From Escherichia coli (GTDB lineage Bacteria; Pseudomonadota; Gammaproteobacteria; Enterobacterales; Enterobacteriaceae): a stretch of DNA of 64,000 bases. Every line of letters begins with the position of its first letter. Within the stretch, counting starts at the first letter, position 1. The position numbers and the translations under genes are program-made. Positions 1 to 28,042 of the stretch are shown piece after piece. The notes below the pieces were generated by a model. It was given only the letters and a program-made list of their open reading frames with translations. It did not search any database and was not told where the DNA came from. The stretch is taken from the NCBI RefSeq assembly GCF_017348835.2, contig NZ_CP071375.1. One strand, written 5' to 3'.

Positions 1-320
1 CCTTTCGCCAGATCGCCTTCTTCCGTATCGGGATGCAACTGCGCCACGCTCATTGAGGGCGTGGGTGTGACGTAATTGGGGCTGACCACTTCCAGCAGGC
101 GCTGGGTGAAACGGGGGAATTCAGCGTCAATTTTTAGCTGCGTGCGGGCGGTCAGGAAGCTGAAGGCCTCGACCATTCGCTCTACATACGGATCGGCAAT
201 ATCCGTTCCCTGCATGCCCAGCCGGGCGGCGACTTTGGGATGACGGGCGGCAAATTCGGCTCCCGTTTCCCGCAGATAGCTTAGTTCGCGGTTGTAGTAT
301 TCCAGTAGCCGTGGATCCAT
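1..320 (-). CDS. tssF: T6SS baseplate subunit TssF, N-terminal part only (gene runs off the window start)
   Basis: Reverse-strand translation from the ATG at 320 gives [71 protein letters not shown]..., matching the conserved TssF/ImpG N-terminus. Not in the ORF track because no stop lies within the window. Confidence 0.7.
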
Positions 321-425
321 CGGTCTCTCTCTGAATTAAAAAAACGTAATGCGGCTCTGCTCCATATCCAGCGCGCTACGTACGCGGGTTCAGCCGTAAC
401 CGATGTATCTGGTGCCGCCGAGGAG

Positions 426-2591
426 ATGGCAGAACAGGCAGCGGCGGACCTGTTTGGTGCGTTGCCGGAACCGTCAGGTCTGGTTAAAGCCGCAGTAGCT
501 GCTGCGCAGGCTGCCGCTGCAGCAGCAGGGATCCCGGATATGGCTGGTGCAGTTCAGGATGCGGCGGCGTCGATTGCTGCCGGTGGACCGGGGGCGCATA
601 ACGTCACAGTAAGTGGTAGTGCGGTGCCGCCGCAGCTGCTTTTGTTTGCAGGCATGAATGGTTCGGAAGGGCTTGGAAACCTGTTTTCCTACACAGTACA
701 GCTTAAAACCCCGGATACCCTGAACCTCGGATATGTCTCCCCCGCAGCCAACCTGCCGCTCAAGCCGATGGTGGGCAAAGACCTGTGCGTCAGTATCGAA
801 CTGGACGGCGGCGGCAAACGGCATATCAGCGGGCTGGTGACAGCGGCGCGGGTGGTGGGCTATGAGGGCCGCTCGGTAACGTATGAATTACGCCTTGAGC
901 CGTGGCTGAAACTGCTGACCCATACCAGCGACTACAAAGCGTTCCAGAATAAAACCGTGGTGGATATTCTCGATGAAGTACTGGATGAATATTCCTTTCC
1001 GGTGGAAAAGCGGCTGGTGGAAAATTATCCACCCCGCGCCTGGCAGGTGCAGTATGGTGAAACCGACTTCGATTTCATCCAGCGCCTGATGCAGGAATGG
1101 GGGATTTACTGGTGGTTTGAGCACAGCGAGAACAGCCACACGCTGGTGCTGGCGGATGCCATCAATGGTCATAAAGCGTGCCCTGACTCGCCGCTGGTGG
1201 AGTGGCACCAGGAAGGGCTGAAACTGGACAAGGAATTTATCCACACCATTACGGCCAGTGAGAGGCTGCGTACTGGAAAGTGGGTGATGGACGATTTTGA
1301 TTTTATGAAGCCTCGTTCGCTGCTTAAAAGTACCGTGGCTAGTCCGCGTGATACCGGTCATGCTGAATACGAGCATTATGAATGGCCTGGTGATTACTTC
1401 ACTACGGGCGAAGGCGAGATGCTGACGCGCATTCGTATGGAAGCGCAGCGCAGCCCCGGCAGCCGGGCACATGGGGCAGGTCATATCCGCACCCTCATGA
1501 CGGGTTACACCTTTACGCTGATGAATCATCCAACGGCAGAGGTCAACCAGGAATACCTACTGGTACAGACCACGCTGTTTTTACGGGATAATGCGCAGCA
1601 CAGCGGTCAGGAGCAGCATTTTACCTATGTCACCACGTTTGAACTGCACCCCACCAGCGAAGTTTACCGCCCACAGCGAACCCTAAGCAAACCCCACACC
1701 AAAGGCCCGCAGAGCGCCATCGTCACCGGCCCGGCAGGGCAGGAAATCTGGACGGATAAATATGGCCGGGTGAAGGTGCAGTTTGGCTGGGACCGTTACC
1801 TGTACGATGCGGAACAGCCGTACACGCCGGTGGCCGCCATCACGGGGCGCGGAGAGAGCCGGAAAATCTGGTATTACCACACGGACCTGACGGGCACGGT
1901 ACAGGAGGTGACCGCGCCGGACGGGACGCTGGTGTGGGCGGGCTATCAGGCGGGATTTGGTGAAAACCGGGGCGACATCAGCAACAGCGGGGCGTACTTT
2001 GAGCAGCCGCTGCGGCTGCCGGGGCAGTATTATGATGAAGAGACGGGGCTGCACTATAATCTGTTCAGATATTATGCGCCGGAGTGCGGGAGGTTTATCA
2101 GTCAGGATCCGATTTCGATCCGTGGGGGGCTGAATCTTTACCGGTATGCGCCTAATCCGCTGAGATGGATTGATCCGCTTGGATTAGACTGGAATTATCA
2201 TTTAACAGATAGTGATGGTAAGGTTTATTATCATGGACGTGCAAGTGATAATGCGTCAATGGAAGATGTTGCCCGTCGTCACAGCAATACAACAGGAGCT
2301 GATAAGGCAAGATTTGGAGAAACAGATACCATGACACGAATAACTGAGCCGGGTACGCCAAAATTAACAGCACAAGGTGTGGAAGGTATTGCCATAGGTG
2401 ATAATACTATCGGGCGAAGAGCTGATAACGGTAATAGGGGTCGGGGTAATAATATTCGGGGTGTTAATCCCAATGCAACCAATGCTACTGAAAAACTAAA
2501 TGCGGGTAAAGAATTTTTAAATGGACGAATACCAAGTGAAATGACTGGTGAAACATTGACAGGTAAGGAGTATTTTGAATCAAAATGTTAA
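426..2591 (+). CDS. Chimeric VgrG N-terminal domain fused in frame to Rhs core C-terminus plus C-terminal toxin tip (CT1)
   Basis: 721-aa ORF. Residues ~70-455 carry VgrG motifs ([61 protein letters not shown]). From nt ~1800 the sequence becomes Rhs core ([21 protein letters not shown] ... PxxxxDPLGL, motif at 2172-2186), followed by a ~135-aa AT-rich unique tip. The true start may lie downstream of 426. Confidence 0.7.
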
Positions 2592-3463
2592 AATTAACCG
2601 ATGTAAATAAAAATGCATTAAGAATACTTAAAAAATATAACGTGCTGGCAGAAGGTGACATAATAAGAGGTCATCCATTAAGTGAGCGGGATTTGAAATA
2701 TGTTGAGGCGCATTGTATTACAACTGAAGAACGAGCCTTTTTAAATGAAAAAGGTTTGGGGTTCGGATTTATTTCTGTGACTCATGATGAAGCATTAAGA
2801 GATTCGTTTACATATTTTAAATCTTCTAATAAAAATGATGTGACAGCTTCTTTTCTGGTGAGCCTGAGTAGTGCCAGATTAGACTACAGAAGTGGATTGT
2901 CTGCATTTGCAATTATGCAAACAATGCCGATGCATGGCTTTGAACCAAATCAGGCTTCTTTTTGTAAAGTATGTTCCGCAGAAAAATATAAAAAGCATTT
3001 TGATCTAACCAGCTTAAATCAGACTCGTTTCTTTAGTGGTTCTCTAGCAGTCTTTAAAACTCCTTATGAAATTTCTTTTTTTCTGGAGCAACAATCAAAA
3101 TTGGAAGTCGTTCAGCCAACCGAAAAAGATTTCTCTATCTTTAATGCGATTTTGAAAATAATTGTTGACGCAGAATCTGGCGAAAAACTGACATCAATAA
3201 TTAAAAAAATTAGAGCGATTGATGGCTTCAGGATAACTACAGATCAGTGTCGATGTCTTCTGGAAACGCTGGGATTTTGTGGGATTCTGGAAACGAAGGA
3301 ACACAAAGGGTATCTGACTTACTTTACTAATCCTGGACTGGCTCCGAGTAAATCTCATAGTTCTAACTGGGCCTATCCGGTTGATTTCTGGACCGGAGGG
3401 GATGGAATAAATCGCGAAGCGTTAAAATTCTGGTTTGGTGAATATAAAGAAATTGTTATCTGA
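2585..3463 (+). CDS. Putative immunity protein for CT1 (292 aa, no recognised family)
   Basis: Start codon overlaps the CT1 stop (aATGTTAA); AT-rich like the toxin tip; position immediately after an Rhs CT is typical for immunity genes. Confidence 0.55.
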
Positions 3464-3557
3464 TTAATTATTTTATAAATTTTTAATCGAGGGACGGATG
3501 GAAATCAATGCCGGATCCCCACCAGTACTAACAGGCGAAAATCCGGGAGAACTGATC

Positions 3558-4020
3558 TTACGGTTGAATAAGATCGTCAATAAACACCGCACCGTCAACG
3601 GTACGCAACCAGCGTGGCGCTTTCAGTTTTGCCGCAAAGAACCAGACCAGTTCACAAAGCAGCCCCGTCAGGGGTTGTTCCATTTTAGATCCCTGCGCCT
3701 GTTCCGTCAGGAGCTGGAGTAATACCTCGCAATATTCACACAATTGCTCAGGATCCAGGTCAAAGTGCGGAAATGAGGCAGGCAGGTCGTCGAGTGTCAG
3801 GCTGTCTACCAGATGGGGTGGAATAGGATCGTTCAGCGTGGGAGACAGAATGGCGATACAGGCGCGAAGTCGTCCGAACAACGCCATTTTCAGCGCCGGA
3901 TCGTGACACTCTATAAGGGTTCAGCGAAGCGATCGCAGTGATCGGCCAGGTCTGTGAAATCGGTGGCAGAACTGAAAGGAATGGACAATAAATCATAATC
4001 AGGGGTGAGGACTGTAGCCA
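3558..4020 (-). pseudogene. Hypothetical gene of unknown function, apparently frameshifted
   Basis: ATG at 4020 preceded by a GGAGG Shine-Dalgarno; 36 codons then stop at 3910-3912. A second frame continues as the 109-aa ORF 3558..3887. No family recognised. Confidence 0.3.
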
Positions 4021-4097
4021 TAAGGCAACCTCCGATAAGTAGGCGTTAAAACCACCACCGAAGAGACCAATCTTACGGGTGGTGGAACCGGGCGGAG

Positions 4098-6932
4098 TTG
4101 GTCTTACCGGCCTTATCGGATACCGGCGCATCTTTCGATGCCACCGCCCGGCCCACCATTGAGGTACAGCCGTGCGTGCAACACAAAAAAGACGCTGGCG
4201 CGTCATGTGTCGCCGATAAGACTTATTCAGGAGACCAATCCCGACGCCTGATTTTGCAGACGCGGCATAACGATACAACGATCGCGAAATGGCGACAAAC
4301 CCCTTTCCCGGAAGGCGGCTCGCAAAATCAGAAATATCACAGGGAAAGACAGAGCGCCGCAACGCGGCGGGATGTACCGCTTCACGTACAACGAAAACCA
4401 TTTTCCGGTAGCGGTGGAACTCCCCGGCGAACGCAGGTAACGCTGGAATACGACACCCTGAGCCGGGTGGTGAAAGAGACGGACCCGGCAGGCCGGGTGA
4501 CACAGACGCAGTGGAACGGCAGTTTTGCTGAAATCACGCGCCGGGCACTGGATGACGACCACGTATGGAAGGCGGATTACAACGAACACGGCCAGGTGAT
4601 ACGGGAGACGGACCCGGAAGGGCGCGTCACGCGCTACGGGTATGATGAACAGGGGCTGGCGGTCAGCCGCACGGATGCGCGGGGCGGCGAGGCTGCGCTG
4701 GCGCATGATGCGCGCGGCCAGCTGAGGCGTTACACCGACTGTTCAGGGCGTGCCACGGGTTATGAATACGATGAAGACGGCAACCTGACGGTGGTGACGG
4801 ACGCGGAGGGGAAAACGGTACGTATCCGCTATAACCGTCTGGGACTGCCGGAGACGGTAAATCATCCCGGTAAACAGCAGGACCGTTACACGTGGAACGC
4901 GCTGGGGTTACTGAGCAGCCACCGTCGCATCACAGGCAGTGTGCAGTCCTGGCAGTATACGCCGCGCGGTCTGCTGGCGCTCCACGTAGATGAAGAGAAA
5001 CGGGAGACGCGCTGGCATTATACCGCGGAGGGATGGATTGCCAGTCTGAGCAACGGCAACGGAGCGCTTTACCGGTTCAGTCACGATGCGGACGGACGGC
5101 TGACGGGAGAACAGCGCCCGGACGGTCTGATACGGATGTTTGTGCTGAATGCGGGCGGGTATCCGGTCATCATCCAGACGCAGGGTACAGAAGGCGGGGG
5201 GCGCAATGAACAGCAGGAGCGTGACGCGCTGGGCCGCCTGCTGCGCAGTGACACGCAGCACAGTACACGGACCTTCAGCTACAACCGTCTTGACCAGATA
5301 ACGGAAGTGACGCTCACCCCGACGAAAGAAGGGGAACGGCTGCACCACATGCAGGCGGACACGGTGCGCTTTGCGTATGACCGCAGCGGCTGGCTGACGG
5401 CAGAGCACAGCGTGCACGGCAGCATAAAATATCAGCGTGACGCGCTGGGCAATCCCACCGATATCACGTTGCCGGACGGGCAGCATCTCAGTCATCTTTA
5501 CTACGGCAGCGGACATCTGCTCCAGACGGCACTGGACGGTATCACGGTCAGCGAATATGAGCGTGACAGTCTGCACCGTCAGGTGATGCGCACGCAGGGG
5601 AAACTGGCGACGTTCAGCGGCTACAACGCCGACAACCGGTTAAGCTGGCAGCGCAGTCTGCCAGGTGGCAGCCAGAATCCACAGCAGACCGGTAACCCCC
5701 CGGCGCAGAACGACAGCGTGACGGCGCGGGACTATATCTGGAATGCGGACGGTGAGGTCGGCGGCATCAATGACAAACTGCGCGGTTGCCTGGTGTTCAG
5801 CTATGACCGCAGCGGCTGGCTGACCAGTCGCACGGGTCAGATGTACGACCATGACCATTATTATTACGACAAAGCGGGCAACCTGCTGACGGACGAGTAT
5901 CAGAGCGCGGTGATGGATAACCGCCTGCCGGGCTACGGGCGTGACCGTTACCGCTATAACGAATGGGGCGAACTGACAGAGCGCAGGGACCAGCAACTGG
6001 AGTGGAATGCGCAGGGCCAGTTAACGCGGGTCATCAGCAGCAACAGCGAGACGCGGTATCAGTATGATGCGCTGGGCAGGCGTATCAGCAAGGCGACCAG
6101 CAATCTCCATACCGACCGGGGAGAACGAAGCCGGACAACGTTTGTGTGGGAAGGGGTCCGGCTGTTGCAGGAGACAACGTGGCAGGGAAAGCGGACGTAC
6201 CTGTACGACGCGGAACAGCCGTACACGCCGGTGGCCGCCATCACCGGGCGCGGAGAGAGCCGGAAAATCTGGTATTACCACACGGACCTGACGGGCACGG
6301 TACAGGAGGTGACCGCGGCGGACGGGACGCTGGTGTGGGCGGGCTATCAGGCGGGGTTCGGAGAAAACCGGGGCGACATCAGCAACAGCGGGGCGTATTT
6401 TGAACAGCCGCTGCGGCTGCCGGGGCAGTATTATGATGAAGAGACGGGGCTGCACTATAATCTGTTCAGATATTATGCGCCGGAGTGCGGGAGGTTCGTA
6501 AGCCAGGATCCGATTTCGATCCGGGGTGGTCTGAATCTTTACCGGTATGCGCCGAATCCGATTACTTGGATCGATCCGTGGGGATTGGCAAAGGGGGATT
6601 ATGGTAAAATGCCTACGTTCCCTGGTTGGCAGAAACATCATAATATTCCACAAAATATGGCTACTCATTCGGCAATTGTTGACTCTGGATTTGATATACA
6701 TAATAGTCGTAACATTACAACCTTGCCAAAAACTGGAAGTATAGATACTGCCAGAACAGTGCACAGTGGAATGCACACAGGAGATTATGACAGGATGGTA
6801 AAAAATGCTTTAGATCAAATTGACTCGTTGAATGCTTCCCCTGAGATCAAAAAAATGCATATAGAAGCCTTATCTGATGATATTGGCAATAAATTGAGAA
6901 CAAAACAAATTACGTTAAATGCTGCATGTTGA
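4098..6932 (+). CDS. Orphan rhs fragment (N-terminally truncated core with YD repeats) with toxin tip CT2
   Basis: 944-aa ORF; YD-repeat Rhs core similarity begins near nt 4330 with a frame break just upstream. Core ends at DPWGL (6573-6587), then a ~115-aa tip containing WQKHHNIPQ and a downstream His (HSGMHTGDY), possibly an HNH/AHH-type nuclease. Confidence 0.7.
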   Translation: MVLPALSDTGASFDATARPTIEVQPCVQHKKDAGASCVADKTYSGDQSRRLILQTRHNDTTIAKWRQTPFPEGGSQNQKYHRERQSAATRRDVPLHVQRKPFSGSGGTPRRTQVTLEYDTLSRVVKETDPAGRVTQTQWNGSFAEITRRALDDDHVWKADYNEHGQVIRETDPEGRVTRYGYDEQGLAVSRTDARGGEAALAHDARGQLRRYTDCSGRATGYEYDEDGNLTVVTDAEGKTVRIRYNRLGLPETVNHPGKQQDRYTWNALGLLSSHRRITGSVQSWQYTPRGLLALHVDEEKRETRWHYTAEGWIASLSNGNGALYRFSHDADGRLTGEQRPDGLIRMFVLNAGGYPVIIQTQGTEGGGRNEQQERDALGRLLRSDTQHSTRTFSYNRLDQITEVTLTPTKEGERLHHMQADTVRFAYDRSGWLTAEHSVHGSIKYQRDALGNPTDITLPDGQHLSHLYYGSGHLLQTALDGITVSEYERDSLHRQVMRTQGKLATFSGYNADNRLSWQRSLPGGSQNPQQTGNPPAQNDSVTARDYIWNADGEVGGINDKLRGCLVFSYDRSGWLTSRTGQMYDHDHYYYDKAGNLLTDEYQSAVMDNRLPGYGRDRYRYNEWGELTERRDQQLEWNAQGQLTRVISSNSETRYQYDALGRRISKATSNLHTDRGERSRTTFVWEGVRLLQETTWQGKRTYLYDAEQPYTPVAAITGRGESRKIWYYHTDLTGTVQEVTAADGTLVWAGYQAGFGENRGDISNSGAYFEQPLRLPGQYYDEETGLHYNLFRYYAPECGRFVSQDPISIRGGLNLYRYAPNPITWIDPWGLAKGDYGKMPTFPGWQKHHNIPQNMATHSAIVDSGFDIHNSRNITTLPKTGSIDTARTVHSGMHTGDYDRMVKNALDQIDSLNASPEIKKMHIEALSDDIGNKLRTKQITLNAAC

Positions 6933-6947
6933 ATAACGAGGGAATAT

Positions 6948-7538
6948 ATGATTTATTTTTTATCTGATAAAAAAAATACCTTCGGGTTGTTGCATTATGA
7001 TCATAAAACTTCGATCGACTACACAGTATTTAATGAGGGGGTTAGCATAACAGGAATAGACATTAATATTAAATATACATCAAACAATAAAAATGATTTA
7101 AAACGGCTCGAAAAGTGTAACATTATAGAAACGACAGGTCCGACATTGATAAATAATAAGATTAGACATGTTTTTGAAAAATATGCAAGCAATGCGGTTG
7201 AATTTTTTGATGTAGACATTAACGATGATATAGATTTATCAAGGAAGTTTTGTGCGATTAATTTATTATGGGTCTTACCATGTTGTGATATGGAAAAGAG
7301 TGAATTTACATTAAGTAATTTCGATCTTGCCAATCCTAACTATATGTTTATGTATAAAGTTCTAAAAAATGATATTAATAGAGAGGTGGATATATTTCGG
7401 TGTAAGGAGCAGCATACTGAAATTGTTGTAAGTGAAGGAGTTAAGCAAGCATGTATGGACGCGGGAATTAAAGGATTGCGTTTTTGTACGGCTATTGATT
7501 TAACTCCAAAAAATAGATCTGAGTGTGTATTTATTTAA
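6948..7538 (+). CDS. Putative immunity protein for CT2 (196 aa)
   Basis: AT-rich ORF 15 bp downstream of the CT2 stop, same strand. Confidence 0.5.
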   Translation: MIYFLSDKKNTFGLLHYDHKTSIDYTVFNEGVSITGIDINIKYTSNNKNDLKRLEKCNIIETTGPTLINNKIRHVFEKYASNAVEFFDVDINDDIDLSRKFCAINLLWVLPCCDMEKSEFTLSNFDLANPNYMFMYKVLKNDINREVDIFRCKEQHTEIVVSEGVKQACMDAGIKGLRFCTAIDLTPKNRSECVFI

Positions 7539-7559
7539 TATATATGTATCACGCGGTGC

Positions 7560-9656
7560 GGGTATGACGAACAGTTCCTGCCGGAGACGGTCAGCCACCC
7601 CGGTAAACAGCAGGACCGTTACACCTGGAACGCACTGGGGTTACTGAGCAGCCATCGTCGCATCACGGGCAGTGTGCAGTCCTGGCAGTATACGCCGCGC
7701 GGGATGCTGGCGCGCCATACGGATGAAGAGAAACGGGAGACGCGCTGGCAGTACACCCCGGAAGGGCTGGTTGCCAGTCTGAGCAACGGCAACGGAGCGC
7801 TTTACCGGTTCAGTCACGATGCGGACGGACGGCTGACGGGAGAACAGCGCCCGGACGGTCTGATACGGATGTTTGTGCTGAATGCGGGCGGGTATCCGGT
7901 CATCATCCAGACGCAGGGTACAGAAGGCGGGGGGCGCAATGAACAGCAGGAGCGTGACGCGCTGGGCCGCCTGCTGCGCAGTGACACGCAGCACAGTACA
8001 CGGACCTTCAGCTACAACCGTCTTGACCAGATAACGGAAGTGACGCTCACCCCCACGGAAGAAGGGGAACGGCTGCACCACATGCAGGCGGACACGGTGC
8101 GCTTTGCGTATGACCGCAGCGGCTGGCTGACGGCAGAGCACAGCGTGCACGGCAGCATAAAATATCAGCGTGACGCGCTGGGCAATCCCACCGACATCAC
8201 GTTACCGAACGGGCAGCACCTCAGCCATCTTTACTACGGCAGCGGGCATCTGCTCCAGACGGCACTGGACGGTATCACGGTCAGTGAATATGAGCGTGAC
8301 AGTCTGCACCGTCAGGTGATGCGCACGCAGGGGAAACTGGCGACGTTCAGCGGCTACAACGCCGACAACCGGTTAAGCTGGCAGCGCAGCCTGCCAGGTG
8401 GCAGCCAGAACCCACAGCAGGCCGGTAACCCCCCGGCGCAGAAAGACAGCGTGACAGCGCGGGATTATATCTGGAACGCAGACGGTGAAGTCGGCGGCAT
8501 CAATGACAAACTGCGCGGTTGCCTGGTGTTCAGCTATGACCGCAGCGGCTGGCTGACCAGTCGCACGGGTCAGATGTACGACCATGACCATTATTATTAC
8601 GACAAAGCGGGCAATCTGCAGACGGATGAGCATCAGGGAGCGGTGCCGGATAACCGCCTGCCGGGCTACGGGCGTGACCGCTACCGCTATAACGAATGGG
8701 GCGAACTGACAGAGCGCAGGGACCAGCAACTGGAGTGGAATACGCAGGGCCAGTTAACGCGGGTCATCAGCAGCAACAGCGAGACGCGGTATCAGTATGA
8801 TGCGCTGGGCAGGCGTATCAGCAAGGCGACCAGCAATCTCCATACCGACCGGGGAGAACGAAGCCGGACAACGTTTGTGTGGGAAGGGTTCCGGCTGTTG
8901 CAGGAGACAACGTGGCAGGGAAAGCGGACATACCTGTACGACGCGGAACAGCCGTACACGCCGGTGGCGGCCATCACGGGGCGCGGAGAGAGCCAGAAAA
9001 TCTGGTATTACCACACGGACCTGACGGGCACGGTACACGAGGTAACCGCGCCGGACGGGACGCTGGTGTGGGCGGGCTACCAGGCGGGATTTGGCGAAAA
9101 CCGGGGCGACATCAGCAACAGCGGGGCGTACTTTGAGCAGCCGCTGCGACTGCCGGGGCAGTACTTTGACGAAGAAACAGGGCTGCATTACAATCTGTTC
9201 AGGTATTATGCGCCGGAGTGCGGGAGGTTCGTAAGCCAGGATCCGATAGGGTTGCTTGGTGGGCTGAACTTATATGCTTATGCGCCTAATCCGCTGTCAT
9301 GGATCGATCCGTTAGGTTTGACTCCATGTGCAAATGGGGGGAATGCTAAAAAACATGGTGGCACAGGACATAATAATTTTATTGATAATCTTATTGCGGA
9401 TGCTCGCAGTCAGGGTGCTACAAATATCAGGAAAAACCAATGGCAGGTAGATGTTAATGGAAATGTTGTTGGTAAAAATAGACCGGATGTTCAATTTGAT
9501 TTAAATGGTAAACATTATAATATTGAGGTTGATACAACAATAAAAGGCAGCGTTGGTCACCAAAATACTATACCTACACTTGATCCCAACTCAAGAAATA
9601 CATTTTGGCTAATTGATGACTTAGGGAATATTTTAAATGGCCACTCAACCATCTGA
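7560..9656 (+). CDS. Orphan rhs fragment with toxin tip CT3
   Basis: Rhs core similarity starts ~7560 (ORF-track start 7674). DPLGL at 9306-9320, then a ~110-aa tip with RPDVQF ... NIEVDTTIK, possibly a PD-(D/E)xK-like nuclease. Core is near-identical to the next fragment at an offset of 2586 bp. Confidence 0.7.
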   Translation, partial: GYDEQFLPETVSHPGKQQDRYTWNALGLLSSHRRITGSVQSWQYTPRGMLARHTDEEKRETRWQYTPEGLVASLSNGNGALYRFSHDADGRLTGEQRPDGLIRMFVLNAGGYPVIIQTQGTEGGGRNEQQERDALGRLLRSDTQHSTRTFSYNRLDQITEVTLTPTEEGERLHHMQADTVRFAYDRSGWLTAEHSVHGSIKYQRDALGNPTDITLPNGQHLSHLYYGSGHLLQTALDGITVSEYERDSLHRQVMRTQGKLATFSGYNADNRLSWQRSLPGGSQNPQQAGNPPAQKDSVTARDYIWNADGEVGGINDKLRGCLVFSYDRSGWLTSRTGQMYDHDHYYYDKAGNLQTDEHQGAVPDNRLPGYGRDRYRYNEWGELTERRDQQLEWNTQGQLTRVISSNSETRYQYDALGRRISKATSNLHTDRGERSRTTFVWEGFRLLQETTWQGKRTYLYDAEQPYTPVAAITGRGESQKIWYYHTDLTGTVHEVTAPDGTLVWAGYQAGFGENRGDISNSGAYFEQPLRLPGQYFDEETGLHYNLFRYYAPECGRFVSQDPIGLLGGLNLYAYAPNPLSWIDPLGLTPCANGGNAKKHGGTGHNNFIDNLIADARSQGATNIRKNQWQVDVNGNVVGKNRPDVQFDLNGKHYNIEVDTTIKGSVGHQNTIPTLDPNSRNTFWLIDDLGNILNGHSTI

Positions 9657-10221
9657 TAATAAAAAATTAGTGTTTGCTGTAGTGAACAGTGATTTTAATG
9701 ATATAGAAAGAACTATCCATAATGGATTGAACTGGCCGAGTGAACCAATAAGTAGTCGAAAACTTATTGAGGAAATACACTTGACTATTCAACGTGGTGG
9801 GGTCTTGCCGTCCGAGGGGGTTTTCTATTATCCGTGTATAAATGACAGCAAATTAATTTTTCTGTCTAATTTATCTGATGGATGGGACTCTTTACTTTAT
9901 TGCCTGTCAAAACAGAATAAATCTAGCTATCTACTGTTTAGGTTATTGATGGGGGAATACCCTCTGATGGAAATGAGTTTTATAGAGTCAGGGAAAACAA
10001 TACGTTTAATTAGAGTGATAAAAGAAAATAAATGGATTTTTTATGAGGTCGGGGAACCGTTATGGTTTGAAGAAAAGGAAAACTATTCAAAAAGAAGAAT
10101 CGCAGATAGAATTACTTATGATCTCTTACTCTCCTATTCACGGAAAAATGGCATTGACTTTGATTCCCCCGCATTTTTTAAAACGGAAAAAGAATCACTA
10201 TGGTTGAATGAAATACGATAG
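9637..10221 (+). CDS. Putative immunity protein for CT3 (194 aa)
   Basis: Overlaps the CT3 stop by 20 bp; AT-rich. Confidence 0.5.
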   Translation: MATQPSDNKKLVFAVVNSDFNDIERTIHNGLNWPSEPISSRKLIEEIHLTIQRGGVLPSEGVFYYPCINDSKLIFLSNLSDGWDSLLYCLSKQNKSSYLLFRLLMGEYPLMEMSFIESGKTIRLIRVIKENKWIFYEVGEPLWFEEKENYSKRRIADRITYDLLLSYSRKNGIDFDSPAFFKTEKESLWLNEIR

Positions 10222-10234
10222 TTTATTTAAATAA

Positions 10235-10272
10235 AAAGCCGGAAAAGAAATTAAACTTTCCCGGCTTTTTTA
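10235..10272. terminator. Hairpin plus T-tract, likely bidirectional intrinsic terminator
   Basis: aaagccgg ... ccggcttttttatt between the immunity-3 stop and the convergent SymE-like gene. Confidence 0.5.
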
Positions 10273-10276
10273 TTAT

Positions 10277-10457
10277 TTAACTCTCGTTCAGCACACTAAA
10301 CATCCCGTCCCGCATCCCCTTAACTGCCTGTTTAACCTGATAAAGCTCCCTGCGCAGTTCCTGTACTTCGTTGTTATCCGCAAGCAGGATCAGACATCCC
10401 TCCGAGATCTTCACGGTAACGCCCGTGCCGATCTCAAATCCCGCTTCTCTCAGCCAT
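10277..10457 (-). pseudogene. SymE-like toxin gene, 5'-truncated by the adjacent rhs fragment boundary
   Basis: C-terminal 60 aa (AKWLREAGFEIGTGVTVKISEGCLILLADNNEVQELRRELYQVKQAVKGMRDGMFSVLNES) resemble SymE ([28 protein letters not shown]). Similarity ends where rhs core sequence starts at ~10458. Confidence 0.55.
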
Positions 10458-12335
10458 TTGGCGCTGAATGCGGGCGGGTTTCCGGTCATCATCCAGACGC
10501 AGGGCACAGAGGGCGGGGTGCGTAATGAGCGGCAGGAGCGTGATGCGCTGGGCCGCCTGCTGCGCAGTGACACGCAGCACAGTACACGGACCTTCAGCTA
10601 CAACCGTCTTGACCAGATAACGGAAGTGACGCTCACCCCCACGGAAGAAGGGGAACGGCTGCACCACATGCAGGCGGACACGGTGCGCTTTGCGTATGAC
10701 CGCAGCGGCTGGCTGACGGCAGAGCACAGCGTGCACGGCAGCATAAAATATCAGCGTGACGCGCTGGGCAATCCCACCGACATCACGTTACCGAACGGGC
10801 AGCACCTCAGCCATCTTTACTACGGCAGCGGGCATCTGCTCCAGACGGCACTGGACGGTATCACGGTCAGTGAATATGAGCGTGACAGTCTGCACCGTCA
10901 GGTGATGCGCACGCAGGGGAAACTGGCGACGTTCAGCGGCTACAACGCCGACAACCGGTTAAGCTGGCAGCGCAGCCTGCCAGGTGGCAGCCAGAACCCA
11001 CAGCAGGCCGGTAACCCCCCGGCGCAGAAAGACAGCGTGACAGCGCGGGATTATATCTGGAACGCAGACGGTGAAGTCGGCGGCATCAATGACAAACTGC
11101 GCGGTTGCCTGGTGTTCAGCTATGACCGCAGCGGCTGGCTGACCAGTCGCACGGGTCAGATGTACGACCATGACCATTATTATTACGACAAAGCGGGCAA
11201 TCTGCAGACGGATGAGCATCAGGGAGCGGTGCCGGATAACCGCCTGCCGGGCTACGGGCGTGACCGCTACCGCTATAACGAATGGGGCGAACTGACAGAG
11301 CGCAGGGACCAGCAACTGGAGTGGAATACGCAGGGCCAGTTAACGCGGGTCATCAGCAGCAACAGCGAGACGCGGTATCAGTATGATGCGCTGGGCAGGC
11401 GTATCAGCAAGGCGACCAGCAATCTCCATACCGACCGGGGAGAACGAAGCCGGACAACGTTTGTGTGGGAAGGGTTCCGGCTGTTGCAGGAGACAACGTG
11501 GCAGGGAAAGCGGACATACCTGTACGACGCGGAACAGCCGTACACGCCGGTGGCGGCCATCACGGGGCGCGGAGAGAGCCAGAAAATCTGGTATTACCAC
11601 ACGGACCTGACGGGCACGGTACACGAGGTAACCGCGCCGGACGGGACGCTGGTGTGGGCGGGCTACCAGGCGGGATTTGGTGAAAACCGGGGCGACATCA
11701 GCAACAGCGGGGCGTACTTTGAGCAGCCGCTGCGGCTGCCGGGGCAGTATTATGATGAAGATACGGGGCTGCACTATAATCTGTTCAGATATTATGCGCC
11801 GGAGTGCGGGCGGTTTATCAGTCAGGACCCGATAGGGCTGGCGGGAGGAATAAACCTATATGCTTATGCGCCTAATCCGCTAAGTTATATTGATCCTCTT
11901 GGGCTTTGTAAATTAAGGGGAAGCGATGGGCGCTACAGAAGTGCACAGAATATTCAGGAAGAAATAGGCGGCCTACCCAATTTTGCAGGAAAAACTCCAG
12001 GAGAAATACGACAAACTTTGCGTAATCGAGGTTATTCGTCGGTACAAGCGTATAGTGGAGGAGAGGTCTGGACAAAAGCATTACCTGACGGAAATACTGT
12101 TGCAGTGAGGCTTGATCCGGCAAATCCTCGCTCACCTTCACATTATGCTGATGCTGTACCTCATGCTCATATTGAAACAGTTCCAACATCCAGTGTTTCT
12201 AATGGGAATTATCGCCCGCGAGACGTGACTGGCAGGCATACTGCCACTGGTGGGGTTTCTGATCGAGGAACAAATCCGAATCATAACGCTGATGTTTACA
12301 TTCCAATGTCTCCGGGACGATTCCCATATGATTAA
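10458..12335 (+). CDS. Orphan rhs fragment with toxin tip CT4
   Basis: Rhs core similarity from ~10458 (ORF-track start 10371 is a read-through of the SymE antisense). DPLGL at 11892-11906, then a ~143-aa unique tip with no recognised family. Confidence 0.7.
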   Translation: MALNAGGFPVIIQTQGTEGGVRNERQERDALGRLLRSDTQHSTRTFSYNRLDQITEVTLTPTEEGERLHHMQADTVRFAYDRSGWLTAEHSVHGSIKYQRDALGNPTDITLPNGQHLSHLYYGSGHLLQTALDGITVSEYERDSLHRQVMRTQGKLATFSGYNADNRLSWQRSLPGGSQNPQQAGNPPAQKDSVTARDYIWNADGEVGGINDKLRGCLVFSYDRSGWLTSRTGQMYDHDHYYYDKAGNLQTDEHQGAVPDNRLPGYGRDRYRYNEWGELTERRDQQLEWNTQGQLTRVISSNSETRYQYDALGRRISKATSNLHTDRGERSRTTFVWEGFRLLQETTWQGKRTYLYDAEQPYTPVAAITGRGESQKIWYYHTDLTGTVHEVTAPDGTLVWAGYQAGFGENRGDISNSGAYFEQPLRLPGQYYDEDTGLHYNLFRYYAPECGRFISQDPIGLAGGINLYAYAPNPLSYIDPLGLCKLRGSDGRYRSAQNIQEEIGGLPNFAGKTPGEIRQTLRNRGYSSVQAYSGGEVWTKALPDGNTVAVRLDPANPRSPSHYADAVPHAHIETVPTSSVSNGNYRPRDVTGRHTATGGVSDRGTNPNHNADVYIPMSPGRFPYD

Positions 12336-12346
12336 TGTGAGGTTTT

Positions 12347-12610
12347 ATGAATATCCGAAATCAATATAATGAAGCCTTAAATAAATTAGAAGTTGATGTT
12401 AATGATGGTTTGAGAGATTTAATAAACATATATTGTGTGGCTATTGATTCTTTTGAAAATGATATCGTTGACTCGATTGCTTTATACGTGATTGATATGG
12501 GAAATAAAGATACTTGTCGATATCTACAAGAAGTCTTATCAGAGAATGAAGATCCTTATTTAGTAAAAGAATTTAATGCATGGATAAAAGAAATTAAGAA
12601 AAAATATTAA
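12347..12610 (+). CDS. Putative immunity protein for CT4 (87 aa)
   Basis: AT-rich ORF 11 bp after the CT4 stop. Confidence 0.5.
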   Translation: MNIRNQYNEALNKLEVDVNDGLRDLINIYCVAIDSFENDIVDSIALYVIDMGNKDTCRYLQEVLSENEDPYLVKEFNAWIKEIKKKY

Positions 12611-12615
12611 AATAA

Positions 12616-12655
12616 AAGCCGGGAAGGTTATAAAATCTTCCCGGCTTTTTATTTT
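12616..12655. terminator. Intrinsic terminator hairpin (9-bp stem gccgggaag/cttcccggc) with T-tract
   Basis: Perfect inverted repeat followed by tttttattttt. Confidence 0.6.
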
Positions 12656-12900
12656 TAATTCTCGTTCAGTACACTAAACATCCCGTCCCGCATCCCCTTA
12701 ACCGCCTGTTTAACCTGATAAAGTTCCCTGCGCAGTTCCTGTACTTCGTTGTTATCGGCAAGCAGGATCAGGCAGCCTTCCGAGATCTTCACAGTAACGC
12801 CCGTGCCGATCGAAAATTCCGCTTCTCTCAGCCATTTGGCGCTGATTTTGATCACCGGCGTGTCGCTGCTGTTGGGCAGATATCCTACGGTACAACGGCG
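12655..12900 (-). CDS. SymE-like toxin homologue (AbrB-fold type I toxin family), possibly defective at its start
   Basis: 66-aa track ORF begins at a GTG; the SymE-like frame extends further upstream (TPEVTISKTQRRCTVGY...) with no in-frame ATG, while an ATG sits in another frame. Confidence 0.5.
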   Translation of the reverse strand, partial: RRCTVGYLPNSSDTPVIKISAKWLREAEFSIGTGVTVKISEGCLILLADNNEVQELRRELYQVKQAVKGMRDGMFSVLNEN

Positions 12901-13001
12901 TTGTGTTTTGGAAATGGTGACTTCTGGCGTAATATCATGTTTAAGTTAGGGGCTTTCGTAGTCATACCCCGACTCTCCCCGGCCCTAAACACAACCCCCA
13001 C

Positions 13002-13781
13002 TCACCACAACCTAAACTCATCCGCATCCTGCCATGCCGGAAACTTTTCTCTATATTCCCGCAATGCCATCATCGACAGCTCCGCATCAATGCGCGTTGC
13101 CTGATGCGCGTCGGCAGTAGCGATAATCTCGCCTTGTGGATTAATCACCCGGCTGTCACCGCGATAATGGCAGCCGTTGCCATCGCTGCCGACGCGATTG
13201 CATCCCGCCACATACGCCTGATTCTCAATCGCGCGGGCCGTCAGCAATGCCTGCCAGTGCAGAGAGCGCGGAGCAGGCCAGTTGGCGACGTACAGGGCGA
13301 GGTCATAATCGTTGAGATTGCGCGACCACACAGGAAAACGTAAGTCGTAGCACACCAGCGGCAAAATACGCCAGCCGCGCCATTCCACAATCACTCGCGC
13401 ATTGCCCGCTTTATAATGCAGATGCTCATCAGCCATTCGGAACAGATGACGCTTATCATAAAAATGTACCGTGCCGCCCGGCTCAACCAGCAAAAAGCGG
13501 TTAACTGAACCAGACTCCGTTTGTAATGCAACACTGCCTGCAATCAGCGCATTGCACTGCTGCGCTTTAGCTGTCATCCAGTTCACTACGTCATCTTGCG
13601 CTAGCGACGAAGCTGCCGCTTCCATGGCAAAGCCGCTGGTAAACATCTCCGGTAGAACGATCACATCGCGCCCGGTAATACCTTCCAGTTGACGATCAAA
13701 ATGACGCAGGTTGGCAGGACCATCCATCCACACCAGTGGTTGCTGCAAAAGCGTAATCTTCAAACCAGGCACGGTGTACAA
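13002..13781 (-). CDS. yafV: Omega-amidase / nitrilase-family hydrolase YafV
   Basis: 259-aa product ...PGLKITLLQQPLVWMDGPANLRHF... matches YafV. Confidence 0.9.
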   Translation of the reverse strand: MYTVPGLKITLLQQPLVWMDGPANLRHFDRQLEGITGRDVIVLPEMFTSGFAMEAAASSLAQDDVVNWMTAKAQQCNALIAGSVALQTESGSVNRFLLVEPGGTVHFYDKRHLFRMADEHLHYKAGNARVIVEWRGWRILPLVCYDLRFPVWSRNLNDYDLALYVANWPAPRSLHWQALLTARAIENQAYVAGCNRVGSDGNGCHYRGDSRVINPQGEIIATADAHQATRIDAELSMMALREYREKFPAWQDADEFRLW

Positions 13782-21832: not shown

Positions 21833-23572
21833 TCAACTCAACGCCCCCATAATCTTCAACTCCAGCTCATCCGGCACTTCGTTATACGACAGCACATGCA
21901 GCCCCGGCGCAAACAACCTTGCGTAGCGCGCTAGCAAAGGGCGCAGCTGCGGCGGCACCAGCAGCACCGGGTCTTTCCCCGCCGCTTTCATCTGCTCCTT
22001 CACCTGCGGCATCGTGCTCTGGAACTGGTTGAGCATATTCGGGTCGACCGGCACGCTGTCGAGCATCACTTTGCCGCCCTGTTGCGCCTGATTCACCACG
22101 TTGGTCAGCAGATTTTCCAGCTCATTATTCAGCGTATACACCGTCAGCTCCTGCTTGCGAACGAAAGGATGAGTAATGCTGCGCCGCAGCGCCAGGCGCA
22201 CATCGGCCGCCAGCAGAATATGATCTTTGGTCACCGCGCTACTGGCGACCAGCACGGTGGCGATGGTGACGATGTCGCGCAGGGAAACGCCTTCGGTCAG
22301 CAGCGCACGGTACACTTTCAGCAACTGGCTGTAATTCAGCGCCGCGCTCAAATCCTCCGCCAGGCGCGGTGCCATTGACGACAAACGGTTATGCAACTGC
22401 GTGATGTCATCATAGTTAAACAAATCAGGAATATAACTGCGCACAATCTTATTCACATGGGTGGCAATCACGCTGGCGCTGTCGATCACCTGATACCCCA
22501 TATTCAGCGCCTTCGCTTTCTGCGCAGGCTGGATCCAGGTGACTGGCATCCCATACGCCGGGTCGTTCCCCAGCACGCCGTCTATCTCGCCGTAGGTTTC
22601 GCTGGAGGGCAGGGCCATCAGTTTATCCGCCGGAATATCCGCTTCATCAGCCTTAATGCCGTTGATGAAAATGGCGTACTGGCTGGGCTTGAGGCGGAAA
22701 TTTTCCCTAATGCGGATCTCCGGCAGCAGCACGCCGTTGCCGTCGGATATCACCTGCCGCACGCCGCGGATCCGCTGGGTGAGCGGGTTACCCTGTGCTT
22801 TATCGACCAGCGCTACTAGCTTGTAGCCAAGGCTTAAGCTGATGGGTTCGATCAGCGGAATGGTTTCCCAACTGACCTGTTGCTCGCTGGTTTCAGTGAT
22901 GGTGCGGGTCAGCGTTTCGAGGCTTTTCTCCTCCGCCTCTGCCGCCTGCGGCTGTTTGCTCATTCGCCAGCCGGTAAAGCCAAGCAGGGCGCTGAACATC
23001 AGGAACGGCAGGTGCGGCATCCCCGGCACCACTGCCAGCACAAACATAATTCCGGTAGCGGTGTAGAGCACCGACGGGCTTGCCAGCAGTTGGTTACGCA
23101 CGTCATGGGCGATATCGCCGTTGTCGCTGACGCGGGTGACGATAATCGCCGCTGCGGTGGAGAGCAGCAGGGAAGGGATCTGCGCCACCAGCCCATCGCC
23201 GATGGTCATCAGCACATATTGCTGGAAGGCGGCATCGGCGCTCAGGTTGTATTTGAAGATCCTGATACAGACGCCGCCGATCAGGTTGATCGCCAGAATC
23301 ATCATCCCGGCGATGGCATCCCCGCGCACAAACTTCGATGCCCCGTCCATCGCGCCGTAGAAATCGGCTTCGCTGGCGACATCTTTACGCCGGGTTTGCG
23401 CCTGCGCCTGGTTGATCAATCCGGCGTTAAGGTCGGCGTCAATCGCCATCTGCTTGCCGGGCATCGCGTCAAGGGTAAAGCGGGCAGAAACCTCGGAAAT
23501 ACGCTCGGCCCCTTTGGTGACGACAATAAAGTTGATTGTCAACAGCGTCAGTAAATCCGAGCGTGAAAGCAT
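21833..23572 (-). pseudogene. lfhA: FlhA-family export protein remnant lacking its N-terminal membrane domain (Flag-2 remnant)
   Basis: 579-aa product homologous to the FlhA central and C-terminal regions; first ~110 aa absent. Confidence 0.8.
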
Positions 23573-24302
23573 TATCGCCGCGCTGCACGGGCAGTCGATT
23601 TTTAACGGTGGTGGGCTGTCGCCGTTAAATAAAATCAGCCCGTCTCATCCGCCAAAACCTGCCACCGTGGCGGTGCCGGAAGAGACGGAGAAAAAAGCGC
23701 GTGATGTGAATGAGAAAACGGCGCTGCTGAAGAAGAAATCCGCCACCGAGCTTGGCGAGTTGGCAACCAGTATCAACACCATTGCCCGTGATGCGCATAT
23801 GGAAGCGAATCTGGAGATGGAGATTGTTCCCCAGGGATTACGCGTGCTGATTAAAGACGACCAGAATCGCAATATGTTCGAACGCGGCAGCGCGAAGATT
23901 ATGCCGTTCTTTAAAACGCTGCTGGTGGAGCTAGCGCCAGTGTTCGACTCGCTCGATAACAAAATTATTATTACCGGGCATACCGATGCGATGGCCTACA
24001 AAAACAATATCTACAACAACTGGAACCTTTCGGGCGATCGCGCGCTTTCAGCTCGTCGGGTGCTGGAAGAGGCCGGAATGCCGGAAGATAAAGTGATGCA
24101 GGTAAGCGCAATGGCGGACCAGATGCTGCTGGATGCCAAAAATCCGCAAAGCGCGGGCAATCGGCGTATTGAGATTATGGTGCTGACCAAAAGTGCGTCC
24201 GATACGCTGTATCAATACTTTGGTCAGCATGGGGATAAAGTGGTGCAGCCACTGGTGCAAAAGCTGGATAAGCAGCAGGTGCTTTCGCAGCGAACGCGTT
24301 AA
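23412..24302 (+). pseudogene. lafU: MotB/OmpA-like protein remnant (Flag-2 remnant); true start uncertain, ORF overlaps lfhA
   Basis: C-terminal OmpA-like domain (IIITGHTDAMAYKNNIYNNWNLSGDRALSARRVLEE); no N-terminal transmembrane segment. Confidence 0.65.
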
Positions 24303-26183: not shown

Positions 26184-26400
26184 ATGGAATGGTACATGGG
26201 CAAATATATTCGTCCCTTATCCGATGCGGTATTTACCATCGCATCTGATGACCTGTGGATCGAGAGTTTAGCGATCCAACAATTACACACCACGGCAAAT
26301 TTACCCAACATGCAGCGCGTAGTGGGGATGCCAGATTTACACCCCGGACGCGGCTACCCGATTGGCGCAGCGTTCTTCTCTGTTGGTCGTTTTTACCCGA
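26184..26400 (+). pseudogene. ykfJ: RtcB-family fragment
   Basis: [16 protein letters not shown] motif typical of the RtcB N-terminus; only ~70 aa before a frame change into prfH. Confidence 0.6.
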
Positions 26401-26828
26401 CAAGACGTCGCGGTAACAGTGCTGGAAACAGAAACAGGTCGTTACTCTGACACCCTGCGTTCAGCGCTGGTTTCTCTGAATGGCGACAACGCATGGGCAT
26501 TAAGCGAAAGCTGGTATGGCACTATTCAGTGGATTTGTCGGAGTCCGTATCGCCCACATCATGGGCGTAAAAACTGGTTTCTGGGCATTGGGCGTTTTAC
26601 TGCTGATGAGCAGGAACAATCCGACGCGGTCCGTTATGAGACGCTGCGTTCGTCGGGGCCGGGCGGTCAACATGTCAATAAAACCGATTCGGCGGTGCGC
26701 GCCACGCATCTGGCTACCTGGATTAGCGTGAAGGTTCAGTCAGAGCGCAGCCAGCATGCCAACAAGCGGCTGGCACGATTGCTGATTGAACCGCCCCGGG
26801 TTTCCTGGAGAGTGTTTTATCTGTGAAC

Positions 26829-27716: not shown

Positions 27717-28042
27717 TATTTTTTCCAGAGGCGGTCGAACTCCGCCTTCGCAAAATAAGCGGAAGCCTGGCGAAGGATATCGTTACTGCGGCGCAGTTCA
27801 CGATTTTCACGTTCCAGCTCTTTCAGACGCTGACGTTCAGCGGTGGTGAGTCCACCATCACCACTCCCGGTATCCCGCTCATGCTGGCGAACCCAGACAC
27901 GCAGAGTCTCCGGCGTACAGCCAATCTTTGGGGCAATGGAACAAATTGCCGCCCACTGTGAGTCATATTCATCCTGACTTTCCAGAACCATACGAATCGC
28001 CCGCTGACGGACTTCGGGGGAAAAACGAGTATTTTTAGTCAT
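27716..28042 (-). CDS. IS629-like transposase OrfA
   Basis: 108 aa, [26 protein letters not shown]..., helix-turn-helix. Confidence 0.85.

Follow-up and report, generated by a model that had tools for sequence, protein, structure and literature searches.

A probable decayed T6SS island remnant with an Rhs orphan array between aspV and yafV in Escherichia coli

The window, a 64,000-nt stretch of Escherichia coli DNA (contig NZ_CP071375.1), was analyzed together with its left flank, which was read from the RefSeq record of E. coli PE164, a pig isolate from China that is near-identical to the window (one mismatch in 14,500 bases, at window position 861). The annotated upstream flank examined in this record comprises 17 kb. 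Junctions and cassettes were counted over 5,426 complete E. coli genomes, and the islands of strains 06-00048 and PapRG-06-5 were used for intact comparison. The features are listed in Table 1. In the PE164 record aspV (tRNA-Asp GTC) is located 3.7 kb left of the window. Homology to K-12 ends 7 nt past aspV (position 13263 of locus L001) and restarts at window position 12950, and the 16.7 kb between these edges are without K-12 counterpart. They substitute exactly for the 2.35 kb of K-12 that carry yafT-ykfM-yafU-yafF. The region thus represents a genomic island inserted at aspV, as it occupies the slot between the aspV 3' end and yafV and replaces the K-12 segment. The sequence-only reading had given the K-12 order aspV-yafT-ykfM-yafU-yafF-yafV, which matches the order found, and had described an rhs toxin/immunity array reaching up to yafV, which also holds: the last immunity ORF ends at 12610, the last symE remnant at 12855, and yafV begins at 13002. 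When the island was searched for yafT, ykfM and yafU of K-12, none of them was detected; yafF of K-12 comprises a larger part of the ISAs1/ISEc1 element that marks the right edge of the island.

Table 1. Features of the island remnant and its right edge (positions in the window).
Position	Strand	Feature	Evidence
1..320	-	tssF 5' part, first 106 codons; gene runs on leftward out of the window	Pfam, PE164 annotation
336..387	-	tssE tail, final 52 nt; rest of gene gone	alignment to 06-00048 island
387..388	.	deletion junction 1: tssE last 52 nt joined to vgrG codon 33	
388..1799	+	vgrG fragment, codons ~33-503 of 737	alignment to PapRG-06-5 vgrG, Phage_GPD
426..2591	+	chimeric ORF, 721 aa: VgrG' + last ~130 aa of Rhs core + tip CT1	
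1797..1799	.	deletion junction 2, 3-bp overlap, in frame: vgrG codon ~503 to rhs codon ~1122	
2187-2591	+	toxin tip CT1 of the chimera	no family match
2585..3463	+	candidate immunity gene 1, 292 aa, overlaps toxin stop codon	no family match, low GC
3511..4364	-	phage/P4-like element fragment inside array	Rfam, DNA match
3558-4021		frameshifted hypothetical gene in phage-like fragment	
4075-4163		C4 antisense RNA in phage-like fragment	Rfam RF01695, 70.6 bits, above gathering
4185-4263		isrK in phage-like fragment	Rfam RF01394, 65.8 bits, above gathering
4364..6932	+	orphan rhs A, from ~rhs codon 510, frameshifted near 5' end	
6588-6932	+	toxin tip of orphan rhs A, AHH nuclease	Pfam
6948..7538	+	Imm11-family immunity gene, cognate to AHH tip	Pfam Imm11, E 5.8e-13
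7578..9656	+	orphan rhs B, core from ~codon 671	
9321-9656	+	toxin tip CT3 of orphan rhs B	no family match
9637..10221	+	candidate immunity gene 3, 194 aa	length and position as in A20
10277..10492	-	symE remnant 1, conserved N-terminus swapped for antisense-rhs sequence	Pfam SymE_toxin E 1.2e-7, protein alignment
10463..12335	+	orphan rhs C, core from ~codon 771	
11907-12335	+	toxin tip CT4 of orphan rhs C	no family match
12347..12610	+	candidate immunity gene 4, 87 aa	
12655..12855	-	symE remnant 2, 66 aa, N-terminus missing	
12950..13001	.	island right edge: last 12 nt of ISAs1/ISEc1 transposase ORF + spacer before yafV	
13002..13772	-	yafV (2-oxoglutaramate amidase), first backbone gene	PE164 RefSeq annotation

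As had been read from the letters alone, the window opens inside tssF. In PE164 the boundary of this leftward-pointing gene lies at 320, and window positions 3-320 match positions 1-105 of Pfam T6SS_TssF on the minus strand (E 2.6e-53). An ARAGORN 'tRNA-His' of 94 nt within tssF was treated as a false positive. Between aspV and tssF the PE164 record contains tssG and tssA (ImpA) alone. All three genes are still full-length ORFs, which fits a recent deletion but would also fit retained function. In intact relatives tssA-G-F-E-tagJ-tagK run leftward, and the other core genes (tssH, B, C, hcp, J, K, L, M) occupy the interval from tssF to vgrG, which in the window is a gap of 67 bp. Window position 387 corresponds to position 12060 of the 06-00048 island (L004), in which tssE extends from 12009 to 12503, and junction 1 connects this position to 33550, so that ~21,489 bp are missing compared to 06-00048. 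This deletion took tssE, tagJ, tagK, tssH, tssB, tssC, hcp, tssJ, tssK, tssL and tssM. Also lost were tai4/tae4 and tagF, several genes with an accessory or hypothetical annotation, and the first 32 codons of vgrG. Inspection of junction 1 revealed no IS and no obvious microhomology. Of the 13 core genes tssA-tssM that form a complete T6SS cluster, eight (tssB, C, D, H, J, K, L and M) are missing throughout the aspV-to-yafV region, two (tssE and vgrG, the latter being tssI) are fragments, and tssA/ImpA, tssG and tssF alone are intact.

The vgrG fragment is 99.0% identical to vgrG of PapRG-06-5 (L005 6607-8019) and is labeled 'missing N- and C-terminus' by PGAP. It matches Phage_GPD (E 2e-101) and consists of the gp27-like hub only, without the gp5 OB-fold or beta-helix spike. 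At junction 2, positions 8019 and 12576 of the PapRG-06-5 locus are joined, and this second deletion of ~4.56 kb removed the 3' third of vgrG, the gene for a DcrB-related (Eag-type) chaperone and rhs codons 1-~1121. IS sequence is absent at both junctions, and an IS-mediated deletion was rejected for this reason. The resulting chimeric ORF and the three rhs orphans behind it bear out the earlier description of the effector end as a fused vgrG-rhs gene plus orphan cassettes. The chimera harbors in one frame a VgrG domain (TIGR03361, E 3.6e-106; HMM positions 7-391 of 513 only) followed by an Rhs-associated core (TIGR03696, E 2.6e-25). It does not encode a specialised ('evolved') VgrG, in which complete gp27, gp5 and beta-helix spike domains precede an effector.

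The three further rhs ORFs (4098-6932, 7674-9656 and 10371-12335) are also truncated at their 5' ends. Their cores (4845-6587, 7578-9320 and 10463-11896) are direct repeats that share 94-98% identity and begin at codons ~510, ~671 and ~771 of the PapRG-06-5 main rhs. All four rhs ORFs lack the N-terminal 510-1121 codons, and none encodes a full-length T6SS Rhs effector with an N-terminal loading region (PAAR-like/VgrG- and Eag-binding) and a complete YD shell. The motifs IDPLGL, IDPWGL, IDPLGL and IDPLGL, in this order, precede the tips, and a different tip follows each of them. The GC content is about 0.60 in the cores versus 0.31-0.41 in the tips and immunity genes. Truncated direct-repeat cores, DPxGL motifs that lead into unrelated tips, small ORFs behind the tips and a drop in GC content give the region the characteristics of an Rhs orphan array formed by C-terminal displacement. 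Searches of CT1, CT3 and CT4 against Pfam, NCBIfam and PDB sequences yielded nothing usable, and the same was true for the 292-, 194- and 87-aa immunity candidates against Pfam and NCBIfam; CT1 gave only the impression of being GIY-YIG-like. The CT3 tip recurs in strain A20 on a full-length Rhs that is linked to vgrG. Counterparts of CT3/imm3 with 98.9% identity are present in strains A20 and A36, where tip and immunity gene belong to a full-length Rhs linked to both vgrG and Eag. CT1/imm1 and AHH/Imm11 were each detected in two of the 5,426 genomes and CT4/imm4 in 24.

Remnants of symE and a phage-like fragment are interspersed with the cassettes. The fragment is syntenic with PapRG-06-5, and its DNA matches at 76% a region for which most of the matches listed give the annotation 'hypothetical protein / ash family protein'; 445 genomes fall within 60-80% identity. 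According to a protein alignment both symE copies are without the conserved N-terminal ~35 residues of their 97-109-aa homologues, and matches to an antisense isrA-like RNA remained below the Rfam gathering score. Neither copy forms a SymE/SymR type I toxin-antitoxin pair, that is, a full-length SymE whose 5' end is covered by an antisense RNA. A hairpin with a 16-bp stem (12614-12649) is located just 3' of symE remnant 2, between that remnant and immunity gene 4.

Junctions 1 and 2 are each contiguous only in PE164 and F2_81 (2/5,426 genomes), both of which are pig isolates, from China and Australia, respectively. In the intact islands of 06-00048 and PapRG-06-5 the gene set from tssF to vgrG is complete, and the orphans are preceded by vgrG-Eag-rhs-imm. 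Window positions 3511-6577 are collinear with PapRG-06-5 at 95.5%, which indicates that the orphan array is older than the deletions. F2_81 has one cassette fewer than PE164: it carries a recombinant orphan composed of the 5' part of cassette B and the tip of cassette C, and CT3/imm3/symE are absent. The second vgrG-Eag-rhs locus of PE164, at ansP, which is the sole other Rhs locus inspected in this strain, is truncated as well. A similar vgrG'-'rhs collapse occurs at the ansP-pptA locus of RM14723, where it is annotated as pseudogenes.

We interpret the region as the decayed remnant of a T6SS island inserted at aspV, which was disabled by two deletions and is accompanied by an older Rhs orphan array (probability about 0.9). 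Two illegitimate deletions would have disabled the island in the common ancestor of PE164 and F2_81. With the first (~21.5 kb) the island would have lost sheath and tube, ClpV and the membrane complex, together with the divergent promoter region that separates tagK from tssH. Through the second, the final ~130 residues of the main Rhs core would have come to follow the gp27-like half of VgrG in one reading frame, at the cost of the spike of VgrG, the Eag-type chaperone and, on the Rhs side, the shell and the N-terminal loading region. The array downstream, with three truncated rhs copies, distinct tips and cognate immunity genes, would have arisen earlier by C-terminal displacement. None of the four toxins is predicted to be loadable on a T6SS from this locus, because the N-terminal loading regions and spike domains are missing. 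A consensus promoter scan detected no site between 320 and 426 and several inside the AT-rich tips. A cryptic promoter for the chimera or the immunity genes is conceivable, but tssF-G-A and the chimera are probably transcriptional orphans. The region would now evolve by recombination between the direct rhs-core repeats, with the immunity genes presumably as the only parts that may still be useful.

Selection might have kept the array as an immunity island that shields a T6SS-less strain from the Rhs toxins of competitors, as in orphan immunity arrays and in acquired interbacterial defence clusters, a possibility that deserves consideration but is rather doubtful. The 5' truncation affects every rhs, whereas the four candidate immunity ORFs are all intact, CT4/imm4 recurs in 24 genomes, and the near-identity of CT3/imm3 to the full-length Rhs pair in A20 and A36 indicates that a matching attacker exists. 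However, among complete E. coli genomes CT1/imm1 and AHH/Imm11 are confined to PE164 and F2_81, and imm3 has been lost in F2_81. Moreover, the toxin tips are as intact as the immunity genes, and thus intactness cannot separate selection from recency.

A role of the in-frame VgrG'-Rhs-CT1 chimera as a working specialised effector, or as part of a toxin-immunity addiction pair, is far less probable. The frame is kept over junction 2, the complete Rhs-associated core domain and the DPLGL motif are retained and an immunity ORF follows directly, but an in-frame join is expected by chance in one of three cases. The chimera is without VgrG residues 1-32, gp5, beta-helix spike, Eag chaperone and Rhs shell, the promoter scan found no promoter-like site upstream of it, and the comparable collapse in RM14723 is annotated as pseudogenes.

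The sequence-only reading had proposed a T6SS island at the aspV hotspot, with its terminal effector region reduced and the remaining tss genes, together with aspV, to be found by extending the window leftward. The slot between aspV and yafV stands, and aspV was found. The outcome named as refuting the proposal, no further tss genes upstream, formally did not occur, as tssG and tssA/ImpA are present, yet the bulk of the T6SS is absent. A working T6SS at this locus has virtually no chance of being correct: the 17-kb flank holds nothing beyond these two genes between aspV and the window, which refutes it, and the other ten core genes of intact relatives lie right of tssF, at the position of the 67-bp gap. 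An assembly artefact, i.e. a collapse across rhs repeats in a repeat-rich array, was rejected as equally implausible, since junction 1 lies in unique sequence (tssE/vgrG) and both junctions are base-identical in PE164 and F2_81, whose complete genomes were sequenced independently and come from different continents, which shows that they are real and inherited by descent.

The decay proposed for this island has published parallels in E. coli, from which both ~20-kb T6SS deletions and Rhs orphan arrays are already known. In ST410-B/H24 the T6SS was lost by deletions of 21.0 kb (rhsG-tssM) and 19.8 kb (tssD-tssA), with rhsG/tssM remnants left behind (Cummins et al. 2023, PMC10711316). As in ST410, one deletion of ~20 kb takes most core genes and spares a few tss genes and an rhs remnant, no mobile element is found at the junction, and the junction sequence is a clonal marker. 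In contrast to ST410, the cluster is of another T6SS type, the breakpoints are tssE/vgrG and then vgrG/rhs, and the lineage is rare and pig-associated (two of 5,426 complete genomes). The Salmonella SPI-6 T6SS is also inserted beside aspV and harbors an Rhs variable region (VR3) with orphan Rhs toxins (Blondel 2009, PMC2907695; PMC12288458). In both loci orphan rhs-CT/immunity modules from C-terminal displacement lie behind a distal vgrG-Eag-rhs. Orphans can be activated through recombination with the main rhs, according to Koskiniemi 2014 as cited in PMC12288458. Unlike in SPI-6, the apparatus and main rhs are destroyed here, and therefore such activation has no functional target. The order tssA-G-F-E-tagJ-tagK // tssH ... 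tssM ... vgrG of intact E. coli relatives matches, in gene order alone, what we take to be the sciA-sciS/vrgS order of SPI-6, in which a divergent clpV comes after tagK. One PGAP product name in an intact relative, 'STY0301 family protein', presumably derives from a Salmonella Typhi locus tag and is a hint only. An SPI-6-type (sci) assignment is only hinted at by gene order, this product name and the weak isrA matches. C-terminal displacement arrays of Rhs in E. coli were reportedly treated by Jackson et al. in BMC Genomics in 2009. The array resembles such arrays in its GC-rich core direct repeats ending in PxxxxDPxGL, differing AT-rich tips, small immunity ORFs and an ISAs1/H-repeat at the array end; nothing essential differs, apart from the extra symE remnants and phage-like fragment between the cassettes.

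We consider it unlikely, though worth stating, that tip/immunity cassettes travel with a convergent gene for a SymE-type type I toxin, complete units adding an HTH-primase-tyrosine recombinase (XerC-like) element. In this case the turnover of rhs cassettes would be driven or stabilised in part by a mobile addictive module and not by homologous recombination alone, and the two symE stumps in the window would be scars of two arrivals. In scoring, the region belongs with T6SS-negative relics and not with T6SS islands, which matters where gene-presence screens take matches to tssF, tssG, tssA or vgrG as evidence of a T6SS. Both junction sequences are clean clonal markers of a pig-associated lineage. 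The array shows toxin tips and immunity genes outlasting their firing machinery.

The first 14,500 nucleotides of the window correspond, with one mismatch, to positions 3,965,771-3,980,270 (minus strand) of the chromosome of Escherichia coli PE164 (NZ_CP114128.1; pig, diarrhoea and blood, Nanjing). The sole differing base relative to the RefSeq record is window 861, inside the vgrG fragment. The PE164 record was taken together with 17-kb flanks to the left and right (L001; L001 positions minus 17,000 are window positions). In the alignment to K-12, homology ends 7 nt past aspV and returns at window 12950. Thus the island has a size of 16.7 kb in PE164 and replaces exactly a 2.35-kb K-12 segment. 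The latter shows the order aspV-yafT-ykfM-yafU-yafF-yafV, as the sequence-only reading had stated. The right edge at 12950 consists of the final 12 nt of an ISAs1/ISEc1 transposase ORF, and K-12 yafF is a longer portion of this element. The window was confirmed to open inside tssF: minus-strand positions 3-320 match positions 1-105 of Pfam T6SS_TssF (E 2.6e-53), and the RefSeq annotation places the end of the gene at 320, so that only the first 106 codons of this leftward-reading gene lie within the window. Left of the window tssF, tssG and an ImpA-family tssA were located on the minus strand, all full length with strong Pfam matches, and beyond tssA follow tRNA-Asp(GTC), which is aspV, and dnaQ. 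The leftward extension that had been proposed for locating aspV and the remaining tss genes therefore recovered aspV, tssG and tssA, but no other tss genes, as the RefSeq annotation of the 17-kb upstream flank lists nothing else between the window and aspV.

The island is nearly intact in strain 06-00048. There, the leftward block after aspV comprises tssA, tssG, tssF, tssE, tagJ and tagK, the rightward block tssH, tssB, tssC, hcp, tssJ, tssK, tssL, tssM, tai4/tae4, tagF and two hypothetical genes, and the right end vgrG, an Eag-type gene related to DcrB, an rhs of 4.1 kb, an immunity gene, symE, a fragment of ISAs1 and yafV. PapRG-06-5 shares this right-hand end and additionally contains orphan rhs cassettes as well as an intact ISEc1 adjoining yafV. 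This gene order, which probably matches that of Salmonella SPI-6, indicates that most of the apparatus belongs between tssF and vgrG, an interval of 67 bp in the window. Of the proposed T6SS island at aspV with a reduced effector end, the slot, the fusion and the orphans hold, but the apparatus between tssF and vgrG is gone. Alignment of window 250-470 with both sides of the 06-00048 island (L004) placed a first deletion junction at 387/388 (L004 12060/33550). Here the final 52 nt of tssE abut vgrG codon 33, 21,489 bp are missing compared to 06-00048, and neither an IS nor clear microhomology was found in this alignment. A second junction was located at 1797-1799, where a vgrG match (PapRG-06-5 record L005, 6607-8019, 99.0%) shares 3 bp with an rhs-core match (L005 12576-12965). 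It joins vgrG codon ~503 in frame to rhs codon ~1122, and the deleted 4.56 kb contained the gp5 and beta-helix part of vgrG, the gene for the Eag-type chaperone, and the N-terminus of Rhs together with most of its shell. Probes of 200 bp across the junctions showed that each is contiguous in two of 5,426 complete E. coli genomes, namely PE164 and F2_81 (pig rectal swab, Australia), and detected no intermediate with one deletion alone in this set. As both junctions are contiguous in these two genomes only, the deletions are genuine, inherited from a common ancestor and rare.

The expected toxin/immunity array, running from a fused vgrG-rhs gene through orphan cassettes up to yafV, was found with four rhs ORFs, their tips and small ORFs (see table). 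In the chimera, the VgrG frame continues into an Rhs-associated core (TIGR03696 E 2.6e-25) and then into a tip of 134 aa. The core repeats of orphans A, B and C are 94-98% identical, and all four rhs ORFs harbor a DPxGL motif followed by mutually unrelated tips. The cores have a GC content of ~0.60, compared to 0.31-0.41 for the tips and immunity genes. Among the four pairs, only one could be assigned to families, with an AHH nuclease as its tip and an immunity protein of the Imm11 family. Alignment to the main rhs of PapRG-06-5 showed that the orphans start at approximately codons 510, 671 and 771, and that all three lack the loading region. Window 3511-6577 is collinear with PapRG-06-5 (95.5% identity), which indicates that the orphan array is older than the deletions. 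A foreign phage/P4-like fragment with a frameshifted gene (3511-4364) is positioned between cassette 1 and orphan A, as in PapRG-06-5 and AR_0077. Its similarity to a region that many genomes annotate as 'hypothetical protein / ash family protein' amounts to 76%, with 445 genomes in the 60-80% identity band.

Features of the island, occurrence of its toxin/immunity cassettes and symE-linked loci elsewhere
Feature	Coordinates	Strand	Evidence or occurrence
vgrG'-'rhs chimera	426-2591 (721 aa)	plus	VgrG hub: Phage_GPD E 2e-101, TIGR03361 E 3.6e-106
Orphan rhs ORF A	4098-6932	plus	core repeat
Orphan rhs ORF B	7674-9656	plus	core repeat
Orphan rhs ORF C	10371-12335	plus	core repeat
Small ORFs 3' of the four rhs ORFs	2585-3463, 6948-7538, 9637-10221, 12347-12610	plus	immunity candidates
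C4 antisense RNA	4075-4163		Rfam 70.6 bits, above gathering score
isrK	4185-4263		Rfam 65.8 bits, above gathering score
yafV	13002-13772	minus	RefSeq annotation
CT1/imm1 cassette			2/5,426 complete E. coli genomes
AHH/Imm11 cassette			2/5,426 complete E. coli genomes
CT3/imm3 cassette			3/5,426 complete E. coli genomes
CT4/imm4 cassette			24/5,426 complete E. coli genomes
symE-rhs immunity linkage	L004 40674-40967; L005 18007-18162; L007 8953-9282; L008 8752-8952		
symE-rhs immunity linkage	L011 215-508 and 9048-9341; L012 7043-7285 and 12296-12625		

The architecture is shown; in functional terms, the locus would be unable to build or load a T6SS. Its tssF-G-A genes would be deprived of the promoter region between tagK and tssH, and the toxin tips would be silent cargo. 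The chimera has no spike and no shell, and a consensus scan revealed no promoter-like site upstream of it. A 98.9% identical CT3/imm3 terminates a full-length Rhs in strain A20, where vgrG and an Eag-type gene precede this Rhs, and A36 likewise has CT3 on an Rhs of full length; at least one retained immunity gene thus matches a deliverable toxin of other strains. That the immunity genes are still protective is rather unlikely, since the tips are no less intact and an attacker is not known for two of the cassettes.

F2_81 carries both deletions and, at L006 12539-15186, one cassette fewer than the window and a 426-bp internal duplication in its rhs core. Its last orphan joins the 5' end of cassette B to the cassette C tip and immunity gene, an arrangement that recombination between direct core repeats would give. 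The second vgrG-Eag-rhs module of PE164, beside ansP (L010 25034-29318; chromosome 2,500,033-2,504,317), is degraded too: its rhs breaks off after ~456 codons, where it is fused to a 5'-truncated nhoA, and both pptA and yddH are absent. At the ansP-pptA locus of RM14723 (L008 6083-8952), a vgrG without its C-terminus directly adjoins an rhs fragment carrying a CT4/imm4-like cassette and symE. This collapse is separate from that in the window; vgrG'-'rhs deletion fusions are therefore a recurrent decay route. Further relics are annotated downstream (21833-24302 and 26196-31463): a remnant of lateral flagella, in which a 5'-truncated flhA lies beside lafU; truncated pseudogenes of rtcB and prfH; an IS3 element; and tail-fibre genes of a prophage.

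Minus-strand symE remnants follow immunity genes 3 and 4 (within window 10200-10573 and 12580-12949). In the protein alignment, the ~35 conserved residues at the N-terminus of the 97-109-aa homologues are absent from both. Immunity gene 4 is separated from the symE remnant by a perfect-looking hairpin with a 16-bp stem and T-runs on both sides (12614-12649), which is likely a bidirectional terminator. Sub-threshold plus-strand Rfam matches to Ssr1 and isrA are antisense to the window symE, those to isrA over its 5' end. In every locus inspected, a convergent SymE-family type I toxin gene is positioned just 3' of an rhs immunity gene, a linkage seen at four or more sites of the chromosome, among them aspV, ansP and ybfA-kdp. 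Behind symE, A20 and D6 carry genes for an HTH protein, a primase and a XerC-like recombinase. The symE-linked module occurs at 504 places in 190 genomes, with up to eight per genome.

T6SS insertion at aspV is established in E. coli and Salmonella (PMC5363993, PMC2808357, PMC2907695), and Rhs C-terminal displacement and orphans have been reviewed for the SPI-6 variable region (PMC12288458). E. coli ST410 lost its T6SS by ~20-kb deletions leaving rhs and tss remnants (PMC10711316), which resembles the situation described here. The PGAP annotation already labels pieces of the island as pseudogenes. The island represents a known type of genome decay within a RefSeq genome that is already annotated, and the recurrent linkage of symE to rhs immunity genes is the only possibly new lead it offers.
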